From Enterobacteria phage KhF3: a stretch of DNA of 64,000 nt. The position numbers and the translations under genes were made by a program. Each line of letters starts with the position of its first letter. Positions within the stretch are counted from its first letter, which is position 1. Shown piece after piece: positions 62,121 to 63,815 of this stretch. The notes beneath the pieces were generated by a model. The model saw only the letters and a program-made list of their open reading frames with translations. It ran no database searches and had not been told where the DNA came from. The stretch lies in sequence record KT184315.1. One strand, written 5' to 3'.

Positions 62121-62430
62121 CATCACTTAAGAGTCTTCTAAGAGGGTTTTTAAGTGATGTGAGGTATGGTAGTGTTCTGTTCGGTACGGTGTGGCACGGT
62201 AATGCTAGGTCTGGTCAGGTCGGGTCAGGTGCGGTACAGTATGGGTAGTTAGTCTCATCTACATTAAAATGAGACTTACCTTTTTAAAAGGTCTTTAAGA
62301 GGGTTTTTTAATGAGGTAGGGTAAAGTAATGTTTGGTCTGGTTTGGTAAGGCGCGGTCTGGTTTGGTAAGGTAAGGTTCGGTATGGTATGGGTGGATGGT
62401 AGTAGCCACGTTAAAAATCTACCAAGTTTC
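62121..62430 (+). repeat. two tandem units: conserved block, GGT-rich tract, hairpin
   Basis: Blocks TAAGAGGGTTTTT, GGT-periodic tracts (GGTATGGT, GGTCTGGT, GGTAAGG), hairpins AGTCTCAT ... ATGAGACT + T5 at 62251-62286 and GGTAG ... CTACC at 62398-62423. Confidence 0.7.
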
Positions 62431-62484
62431 TAAAGAGTCTTCTGTTGAGGGTTCTTTACAAACAACTTAACAATCAACTAAAGT

Positions 62485-63087
62485 GTGGAGCTAAATGCTA
62501 TGAAACTGTTAAATATCAAAATCACTGGTACTCGTCCTTTCTTGAGCCATAACGATACGTTGTCAGACCCATTAAACCCTCTGACAAAATATCACAAGTC
62601 TCTGTCCAGTAAACGTAAAAAGACTGACGAAGACTATGCGCTCTTAGCAGAAAGTCAACTGGTAACCTCTTGTTACTACGATGAGCAGCTAGGTTTTGTT
62701 ATGAACGGTGAGATGATTGAGGCTTGTATCAAGTCTGGTGCAAAACTCAACAAACTTGGTAAGGTAATTGACCGAGCCATTATGCTGACAGATGTAGTCT
62801 TCCCAATGACTATCAAGAACTGTCCAGCAAACCCACAAGAACTTGCTAAGAATCCAGATTTTATCTATGCTAAGTCTGTTAAGATTGGTACAGCACGAGT
62901 TATGAGCTACCGTCCAATCTTCCGTGACTGGTCTGTAGAGTTCGGTTTGATGTTCGATGAAGAGCAAATCACCAAAGAGGAACTCTTGATGGTTCTGGAA
63001 AATGCTGGTAACCTTTGCGGTGTAGGTGATTGGCGTCCACGCTTTGGTCGTTTTTCTGTAGAAGTTATTTCAGAAGGTAACGTTTAA
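62485..63087 (+). CDS. hypothetical protein
   Basis: 200-aa ORF. Confidence 0.5.
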
Positions 63088-63089
63088 TT

Positions 63090-63530
63090 ATGAATACAAA
63101 AGCATTAGCAGCAAAGTTTAGTTACGGTGACACTGTATCACATTCTGAGATGGATACCTTCTTAGGTATTGTGAAGCCAACTTATCAAGGTGACATTGTT
63201 AAGTACGAAGATGAAATGAAGGCTTATGCACTTACACGACTAAACCGACTTGAGAAGTTTATTGAAAAGCTTCTTAAAGAAGAGAAGATTTATCTGGTTG
63301 CTTCAATGGGTGTTGGTTATCGTGTGGTTGAGCCTAAACATCAAGCAACTATTGCAAAACGTAAAATGTCTGGTAAAATTGGTCGTGCTTTAAAGCAAGC
63401 TACTCAAGCAATTGAGAATGTGAACACTATGGCACTTAGCCACCAAGAACGTTCACGACTAATTGAACAGCAAAACCACTTAGCTGCTATGAAAGCTAAC
63501 ATTAACAAGCAACGCAGAAAACCTTTCTAA
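63090..63530 (+). CDS. hypothetical protein
   Basis: 146-aa ORF. Confidence 0.5.
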   Translation: MNTKALAAKFSYGDTVSHSEMDTFLGIVKPTYQGDIVKYEDEMKAYALTRLNRLEKFIEKLLKEEKIYLVASMGVGYRVVEPKHQATIAKRKMSGKIGRALKQATQAIENVNTMALSHQERSRLIEQQNHLAAMKANINKQRRKPF

Positions 63531-63542
63531 GTTGACTAGGTA

Positions 63543-63566
63543 GCCTCTTCGGAGGCTCCTTTTTAA
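63543..63566 (+). terminator. rho-independent terminator
   Basis: GCCTC-TTCG-GAGGC followed by TCCTTTTT. Confidence 0.7.
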
Positions 63567-63815
63567 AAGGTCTTTAAGAGGGTCTTTTAATGAGGTAGTA
63601 TACGGTATGGTGGGGTAGGGTGAGGTCTGGTTTGGTAAGGTAGGGTCTGGTATGGGTAGTTAGTCTCAGCTACATTAAAATGAGACTTACCTTTTTAAAA
63701 GGTCTTTAAAAGGGTCTTTTAACAAGGTATTGTATGGTGTAGTTTGGTTAGGTATGGTTAGGTGTGGTAAGGTAAGGTATGGAAGGATGGCAGTAGCCTT
63801 ATAAAAAATCTGCCA
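63565..63815 (+). repeat. two further tandem units of the GGT-rich repeat family
   Basis: AAAAGGTCTTTAAGAGGGTCTTTT blocks, GGT-rich tracts, hairpins AGTCTCAG ... ATGAGACT and GGCAG ... CTGCC. Confidence 0.7.

Follow-up and report, generated by a model that had tools for sequence, protein, structure and literature searches.

A predicted type II VIPR locus in the Felix O1-like phage KhF3, with guides matching an Escherichia coli satellite

Results

Four repeat units flank a two-gene operon

The stretch of DNA analysed here (the window) comprises 64,000 nucleotides (nt) of the ~88-kb genome of Enterobacteria phage KhF3 (KT184315.1), a Felix O1-like myovirus (Felixounavirus). Directly downstream of the DNA ligase gene (60805-61905), with the polymerase gene (56262-58991) also nearby, four repeat units lie on the plus strand at 62121-63818, two before and two after a two-gene operon. 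All are built to one plan, in which a conserved 5' block is followed by 11-16 GGYNN pentamers and then by a conserved 3' tail. We assign this region, with a probability of about 0.93, to a complete type II locus of the Viral Interference Programmable Repeat (VIPR) system, comprising four vrRNA genes together with vipr and vap1. For the segment 61900-64000, 230 phage records match at 80-99% identity, and most of them are Escherichia or Salmonella Felixounavirus.

VIPR was described in two 2026 bioRxiv preprints (10.64898/2026.04.26.720920 and 10.64898/2026.04.26.720927), where Vipr is a phage-encoded RAMP protein and vap denotes an accessory gene. According to these preprints, 9-16 YNNGG repeats and a tail of ~40 nt make up a vrRNA, the tail being folded into a pseudoknot in the SUSP1 clade. 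Each repeat takes up one Vipr protomer, by which its GGY is sequestered, while NN pairs with double-stranded DNA with one base skipped, leading to transcriptional silencing at any programmed site. The natural target of the SUSP1 clade is reported to be an E. coli satellite. Named in these terms, the features of the KhF3 locus are as follows.

62063-62090, plus strand: sigma-70-type promoter TTGACA-16-TATACT upstream of vrRNA1, 11/12 consensus positions
62121-62159, plus strand: unit 1 5' block, type ii leader, a hairpin CATCACTTAA...TTAAGTGATG around a AAGAGGGTTTTTAA core (inverted repeat I2)
62163-62242, plus strand: vrRNA1 repeat tract, 16 GGYNN units, 12 canonical; NN = AT AG TC TC AC GT AC AA TA CT CA CG CA GC AC AT
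62243-62285, plus strand: vrRNA1 3' tail, class A pseudoknot GGGTAGTTAGTCTCATCTACATTAAAATGAGACTTACC and T5 run (covariation-supported)
62286-62314, plus strand: unit 2 5' block, type i leader AAAAGGTCTTTAAGAGGGTTTTTTAATGA (block search)
62315-62389, plus strand: vrRNA2 repeat tract, 15 units, 13 canonical; NN = AG AA AA TT CT TT AA GC CT TT AA AA TC AT AT
62390-62427, plus strand: vrRNA2 3' tail, class B pseudoknot GGGTGGATGGTAGTAGCCACGTTAAAAATCTACCAAG (tail alignment, covariation)
62428-62460, plus strand: degenerate, leader-like block CTAAAGAGTCTTCTGTTGAGGGTTCTTTAC after the vrRNA2 tail and before the vipr start codon (5' untranslated region of vipr)
62500-63087, plus strand: vipr, encoding the Vipr protein, 195 amino acids, RAMP-family RNA-binding protein (match to PDB 36pp_D)
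63090-63530, plus strand: vap1, encoding the Vipr accessory protein, 146 amino acids (match to the SUSP1 homologue)
63542-63564, plus strand: intrinsic terminator after vap1, AGCCTCTTCGGAGGCT and T-run (terminator scan)
63565-63593, plus strand: unit 3 5' block, type i leader (exact block match)
63594-63653, plus strand: vrRNA3 repeat tract, 12 units, 11 canonical; NN = AG AC AT GG AG GA CT TT AA AG CT AT
63654-63696, plus strand: vrRNA3 3' tail, class A pseudoknot and T5 run (tail alignment, covariation)
63697-63725, plus strand: unit 4 5' block, type i leader (block match with 1 mismatch)
63726-63780, plus strand: vrRNA4 repeat tract, 11 units, 9 canonical; NN = AT AT GT TT TA AT TA GT AA AA AT
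63781-63818, plus strand: vrRNA4 3' tail, class C pseudoknot GGAAGGATGGCAGTAGCCTTATAAAAAATCTGCCAAAT (relative to classes A and B, covariation in both stems)

A first-pass annotation of this DNA had described four GGT-rich units around a two-gene operon, and all of the elements it listed are present. The conserved block it saw in each unit corresponds to three copies of AAAAGGTCTTTAAGAGGGTCTTTTAA at 62286, 63565 and 63697 (no more than 1 mismatch, with 0 expected from shuffles) and a hairpin variant in unit 1. That hairpin, at 62121-62159, is also the 10-bp inverted repeat it had noted, and its consensus promoter at 62063-62090 was borne out. The GGT tracts are real and far beyond chance; their spacing is strictly 5 nt rather than the 5-8 nt proposed, and their length is 55-80 nt (11-16 pentamers). 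A hairpin followed by a T-run, proposed for every unit, was found in units 1 and 3 (T5), while units 2 and 4 have the hairpin without a T-run. The two-gene operon is present as well, with its first gene starting at ATG 62500, as judged by alignment to PDB 36pp, and not at GTG 62485.

The repeat pattern GGTNNGGTNNGGTNNGGT (GGTNN x4, at most 1 mismatch) occurred 30 times, every time on the plus strand and within the four units, against 0.06 expected. Tandem Repeats Finder reported periods of 5/10/15/20/25 at the tracts, and the array lengths of 16, 15, 12 and 11 units fit the published range of 9-16 repeats. Over 785 pentamers from 68 unique related arrays in 32 loci, the positional entropies were 0.71, 0.12 and 0.49 bits for G, G and Y and 1.93 and 1.89 bits for the two N positions; GGY is conserved and NN is hypervariable.

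An Rfam scan of the whole window at gathering scores, together with ARAGORN, returned only tRNAs and no match at the units. Repeat and tandem-repeat scans found no CRISPR-type array (identical 23-50-nt repeats with unique spacers), and the operon consists of two genes only. Early leads, namely an array of T7-like primase sites (GGGTC/TGGTC), G-quadruplex DNA and an RNA-binding array of the Rho or TRAP type, were abandoned after Vipr had been identified.

The operon encodes Vipr and its accessory protein

A PDB sequence search with the first operon protein led to Vipr. The KhF3 protein is identical to PDB 36pp_D, 'SUSP1 Vipr protein', at 191/195 positions over its full length (E = 6e-128). The residues that the cryo-electron microscopy (cryo-EM) preprint names as contacting G1, G2 and Y3 (H17, D177, R138, W178, E71, M72, R179 and C173) are present in KhF3 Vipr. 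For the pyrimidine pocket the preprint text also names T175; the residue is V in both KhF3 Vipr and the deposited 36pp (segment CGVGDWR), and T175 is probably a slip in that text.

The second gene, vap1, starts 3 nt past the vipr stop codon, and its product is 99.3% identical to the SUSP1 homologue, which adjoins vipr in SUSP1. In the VIPR preprint, vap1 enhances defence and its product is predicted to bind DNA. Pfam has no family for either operon protein, and PHROGs offers only families of unknown function (PHROG 4652 for Vipr). A Vipr at least 90% identical is carried by 117 records of the phage collection searched. In all 60 listed phage records with a Vipr match, the gene is annotated as 'hypothetical protein' or not at all. 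The genome papers on Felix O1 and wV8 mention direct repeats and do not mention these units, which the wV8 record labels 'DR_4'.

Beyond the two proteins (Vipr 98% and vap1 99% identical), the KhF3 locus shares with the type II VIPR locus of SUSP1 its GGYNN vrRNAs with pseudoknot tails of the same tail classes (L019/L033; L numbers are our locus identifiers). The two also share a genomic slot, between the DNA ligase gene and a downstream cluster that includes a transcriptional-regulator gene, and a class of target, an E. coli satellite with tape-measure and baseplate-hub homologues. They differ in arrangement and in code: SUSP1 has one guide upstream and three downstream according to the preprint, where KhF3 has two and two, and the set of NN codes is different. 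SUSP1 belongs to the genus Suspvirus and KhF3 to Felixounavirus. The KhF3 locus is a member of the SUSP1 clade of type II VIPR.

The promoter at 62063-62090 likely drives vrRNA1-vrRNA2-vipr-vap1. The stem of the terminator after vap1 has the sequence of Felix O1 terminator t111 listed in PMC3185647.

Each guide array ends in a covarying pseudoknot

In all four units the tail hairpin belongs to an H-type pseudoknot, of which it makes up one stem. Four tail classes (A, A2, B and C) can be told apart, and they differ from one another by paired substitutions. We tested the following structure on 17 distinct tails:

..[[[[.((((((((.]]]].......)))))))).....

In this alignment 89% of cells were paired, and compensatory changes occurred at 9/12 pairs. 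The pseudoknot stem was 100% paired, with 3/4 of its pairs changed on both sides, and the hairpin stem showed such changes at 6/8. The covariation score was 0.572, compared with 0.235 in shuffles (0/500 reached 0.572) and at most 0.17 in slid controls. This structure agrees with the 3' pseudoknot reported for SUSP1.

The 5' blocks come in two types. The type ii leader of unit 1 is also found upstream of many arrays in related phages. A change seen by eye in one of its variants (L020) is not compensatory and gives no support for a conserved RNA hairpin. Direct-repeat family D6 ties the block before vipr (62430-62443) to the unit 1 leader (62126-62139). The idea that the 5' block is a general phage promoter or motif was set aside, as the 20-mer occurs in the window at vrRNA units only and a sigma-70 scan found no promoter within it.

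Three guides match an E. coli satellite

Targets were scored as published, with every GGYNN unit of a guide standing for xNN on the target DNA, i.e. a 1-nt skip. The satellite was searched for through the SUSP1 hub gene, the entry point being a preprint remark on a hub homologue common to the satellite and SUSP1. Copies from E. coli genomes, IMG/VR and metagenomes gave a set of 52 loci (688 kb), which three later loci brought to 55. The satellite is an island of 11-12 kb with two serine recombinases, a tape-measure gene and a baseplate-hub gene (e.g. L034 5700-17300; also L035, L036, L037 and L145-L147), and it was present in 474/5426 complete E. coli genomes. At least three insertion sites were seen (yciI/tonB, a split DUF72 gene near yecN, and lafU/dinB), and some copies also carry a Dam-like methyltransferase.

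The vrRNA1 guide matched the satellite at up to 29/32 positions (91%; site ATTAACTCATCCACTGTGACAAATCATCTTCAGCGTCAAGCAACCAG) and at no fewer than 25/32 in 23 loci, against 0/200 permuted guides over the 52 loci. Its target is an open reading frame (ORF) of 185 amino acids without a Pfam or PHROG match. In both annotated satellites the site starts 342 nt into this ORF; the NN dinucleotides therefore fall on codon positions 1-2, and the skipped base is the wobble position. The vrRNA3 guide reached 21/24 (88%) in five loci and 19/24 at the same site in two more, again with 0/200 permuted guides; this site (AGAATCAGAGGTAGTGACCTGTTAAACAGACTTTT) is intergenic and lies ~1.3 kb upstream of the vrRNA1 site. 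The best match of the vrRNA4 guide, 20/22 (91%; ATGCTAGTATTGTATATATAAGTTAACAGAAT), has a fixed position 403 nt upstream of the vrRNA1 site, where it overlaps the -10 element (TAGTAT/TAATAT) and start region of a TTGACA-N17-TAATAT promoter driving the vrRNA1-target gene. All three sites occur together in one satellite, that of E. coli CT265 (L147).

Only the 1-nt skip exceeded background; skips of 0, 2 or 3 bases gave background scores. The matches extend to related phages, with 49/61 of their unique guides matching the satellite set at 80% or more.

Satellites carry vrRNA genes of their own in 10/55 sampled loci (L038 2682-2741; L092 1931-1995; L111 1640-1699; L147 3364-3418, minus strand; and six more), with a phage-type class-B tail and without vipr or vap1. 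Their tails include a compensatory GTCG/CGAC stem variant, and no counterpart of the phage 5' block was found at these genes. The guides match other satellites at 86-88%, the phage not being matched, in agreement with a preprint remark on such guides.

Leaders and tails are constant while guides vary among related phages

We collected 31 related loci through the ligase gene and counted arrays over 32 loci, which gave 87 arrays, 71 of them unique when tails are included. All 87 are on the same strand as vipr. From phage to phage the NN codes vary, while leaders and tails hardly change. The units are conserved in most related phages, which keep the architecture with varying guide content. Arrays are wholly absent from five loci (L017, L018, L021, L025 and L031).

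The vipr-vap1 pair is present in ~20 related loci and absent from 11, where vipr is missing from the whole contigs. Six of these 11 vipr-less phages (L003, L012, L015, L027, L029 and L030; at ~7200-7600 in each) keep one or two intact vrRNA genes with leader, array and tail, and four of the orphan guides match satellite DNA at 86-91%. The parts of the preprint text that were searched discuss neither the conserved 5' block nor the orphan guides of vipr-less relatives.

Three observations together point to a [vrRNA-B]-vipr-vap1 cassette that has been gained and lost, with the repeated leaders and tails recombining with one another. First, class-B tails occur in related phage loci only directly upstream of vipr. 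Second, the unit order in vipr-less loci (a unit of leader ii and tail A followed by one of leader i and tail C) is that expected from a deletion between class-A tails. Third, phages with ligases up to 12% different have vipr and vap1 genes that are 97-100% identical.

The vrRNA2 guide and other points against the VIPR assignment

Several points weigh against the assignment of the locus to VIPR. The mechanism is carried over by analogy from the two preprints, whose system is 98% identical. Between one and four units per array are not canonical GGY. A sigma-70 scan found no recognisable promoter before vrRNA3 or vrRNA4; the vap1 terminator precedes both, and their transcription would have to come from read-through or from a promoter that the scan does not recognise. 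The check for self-targets spans 64 kb of the ~88-kb genome. Permuted guides reached the 20/22 of vrRNA4 in 1/200 trials, and the call of its target leans partly on the consistent, meaningful position of the site. Finally, the vrRNA2 guide scored at best 21/30 in the 52 loci under the strict rule, a chance level that 147/200 permuted guides reached, with no consistent site.

At L147 7566-7609 (minus strand) the strict score of the vrRNA2 guide is 22/30, again at chance level, and this place is its recurrent best site, out of register, in ~15 satellites. When one compensated -1 slip over units 6-9 is allowed, the guide matches this conserved intergenic block at 27/30, compared with at most 25 for permuted guides given the same freedom. 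The slipped match could reflect a satellite escape variant or an unsampled allele, and we do not count it as a target. The same block (plus strand CTTTAAGAGTTTTTTAAACAGAGCTTTTAAAGAAAG) resembles the 5' block of the phage vrRNAs. IMG/VR was scanned for exact patterns made from the nine 3' units of vrRNA2 and of vrRNA4, and GTDB genomes for one made from the ten 3' units of vrRNA2; the only matches were AT-rich or unrelated chance ones that do not extend along the guide. Divergent alleles of the satellite methyltransferase were also fetched, because the guide of L024, which shares six units with vrRNA2, targets the satellite methyltransferase gene; none matched vrRNA2.

Alternative explanations

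The units might instead be recombination substrates, i.e. repeat scars around a mobile two-gene cassette without a function of their own. The patchy distribution of the cassette among related loci, the near-identity of vipr and vap1 where the ligases diverge, and the deletion-like order of the vipr-less units all speak for this, yet scars would not retain GGY periodicity, a covarying pseudoknot or NN codes that match a target, and we give the idea only a slim chance. Recombination at these repeats more plausibly follows from their being alike than accounts for their existence, and is compatible with a VIPR locus.

Slightly less probable still is a role of the RNAs in regulating genes of the phage itself or of its host, for instance the timing of phage expression, rather than a competing element. 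VIPR can repress any programmed site, and the searches found no external target for vrRNA2 under the strict rule. Against this, the best self-matches of the four guides in the window (20/32, 20/30, 17/24 and 16/22) are all below 80% and at the level of permuted guides, the satellite matches of three guides lie far above permuted controls, and the preprint reports no self-targeting at 80% or more in its systems.

The first-pass annotation had left three options open, an origin-like iteron region, protein-binding arrays and transcribed regulatory RNAs. The latter two were essentially right, at the level of RNA: the units are read here as vrRNA genes whose GGY is gripped by Vipr from the operon they flank. 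Binding of a protein to the DNA itself, by an origin's iterons or at another initiator or partition site, is the least probable account and very unlikely. Like iteron origins, the locus has short direct repeats that are densely clustered outside coding DNA and close to genes of replication (ligase and polymerase), but iterons are conserved protein sites of ~17-22 bp, whereas the KhF3 units conserve 3/5 bases, are strand-specific and co-oriented with vipr, and carry a structured, covarying RNA tail after each array. No single DNA-binding protein could recognise the same set of sites, because two bases of each pentamer are hypervariable even among close relatives. Those variable bases instead encode matches to foreign DNA through the 1-nt skip, the adjoining genes are vipr and vap1 rather than an initiator, the content differs between near-identical phages, and the arrays are missing from five related loci, which is unexpected for an essential origin.

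Other features of the window

A non-coding stretch of ~1.1 kb at 19200-20340 is full of short direct motifs (CTTAACAG, CTAACAAG, TTAACAAG, CTATACAG and CTCTTAAAAGC) and contains, at 19738-19879, an array with a period of 11 and 13.6 copies. The TTAACAG core of these motifs also lies inside the satellite sites of the vrRNA3 and vrRNA4 guides, one of which is at the promoter. The stretch could hold phage-regulator binding sites that the satellite has copied, or be the terminus or origin region of the genome. On the minus strand, 26 tRNA genes are clustered at 3923-9170, as is typical of Felix O1-like phages.

Discussion

By analogy with SUSP1, the KhF3 locus would work as follows. Host polymerase would transcribe it, at least from the consensus promoter at 62063, and each unit would give an RNA of ~100-120 nt with 11-16 GGYNN repeats and a 3' pseudoknot cap. 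Discrete vrRNAs were shown by small-RNA sequencing in the 98%-identical SUSP1 system (VIPR preprints). One Vipr protomer would then occupy each repeat, with GGY flipped out and held and NN presented for pairing, as in the cryo-EM structure of SUSP1 Vipr. On double-stranded DNA that matches the NN code with one-base skips, the filament would form an R-loop triplex and block transcription, a step shown for SUSP1 and enhanced there by vap1. The co-purification of ~100-nt vrRNAs with Vipr and RNA-guided silencing were shown only for the SUSP1 and P. fulva systems (VIPR preprints). As computed from the guides, the KhF3 RNAs would be aimed at the 11-12 kb chromosomal E. coli satellite with its phage-related tape-measure and baseplate-hub genes, and the benefit to the phage would likely be the silencing of a parasite that would hijack virion parts.

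Vipr resembles the Cas7-family RAMP filaments of Class 1 CRISPR-Cas, according to the preprints, in its RNA recognition motif core, G-loop and thumb, and in oligomerising on a guide RNA with periodic base flipping and sequence-specific nucleic-acid binding. Unlike Class 1 CRISPR-Cas, the VIPR locus is encoded by a lytic phage and is without a repeat-spacer array, a cas1/cas2 adaptation module or a nuclease. It places one protomer per 5 nt and reads non-contiguous dinucleotides on double-stranded DNA with a 1-nt skip and no protospacer-adjacent motif (PAM).

A further comparison is offered by RNA-binding rings or filaments that recognise spaced triplets, such as TRAP, which binds (G/U)AG repeats in the Bacillus trp leader: a similarly short triplet with a variable 2-nt spacer, in ~11 or more copies. 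TRAP is unrelated to Vipr in sequence and acts on its own mRNA, and its spacers carry no information, whereas those of VIPR are informative and target foreign DNA.

Three further ideas form a joint proposal that we put forward tentatively and consider doubtful as a whole. The 5' block may be a cis-element dedicated to the production of phage-borne vrRNAs, as a processing or loading signal or as a phage-specific promoter. Leaders and tails may serve as portable homology arms through which Felix O1-like phages exchange the cassette and guides. Orphan vrRNAs, like those of vipr-less satellites, may work in trans with the Vipr of a co-infecting phage.

The novelty of the locus itself is low, as both this kind of system and the SUSP1 clade are already described, in preprints only; what is new here, namely the map of guides and their targets, the orphan guides and the dynamics of the cassette, is incremental. 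VIPR is a newly described form of programmable DNA recognition by a ~20-kDa protein and a ~100-nt guide RNA, with no PAM and a non-contiguous code, and CRISPR RAMP effectors have been proposed to descend from it. It can be recognised from raw sequence alone by GGYNN tracts around a small two-gene operon, which allows re-annotation of the 117 records carrying a closely similar Vipr. KhF3 provides a natural worked example, with a single satellite matched by three guides of the same phage, at a promoter, at the gene behind that promoter and at an upstream intergenic site, and its guide-target pairs are ready for the study of phage-satellite conflict in E. coli.

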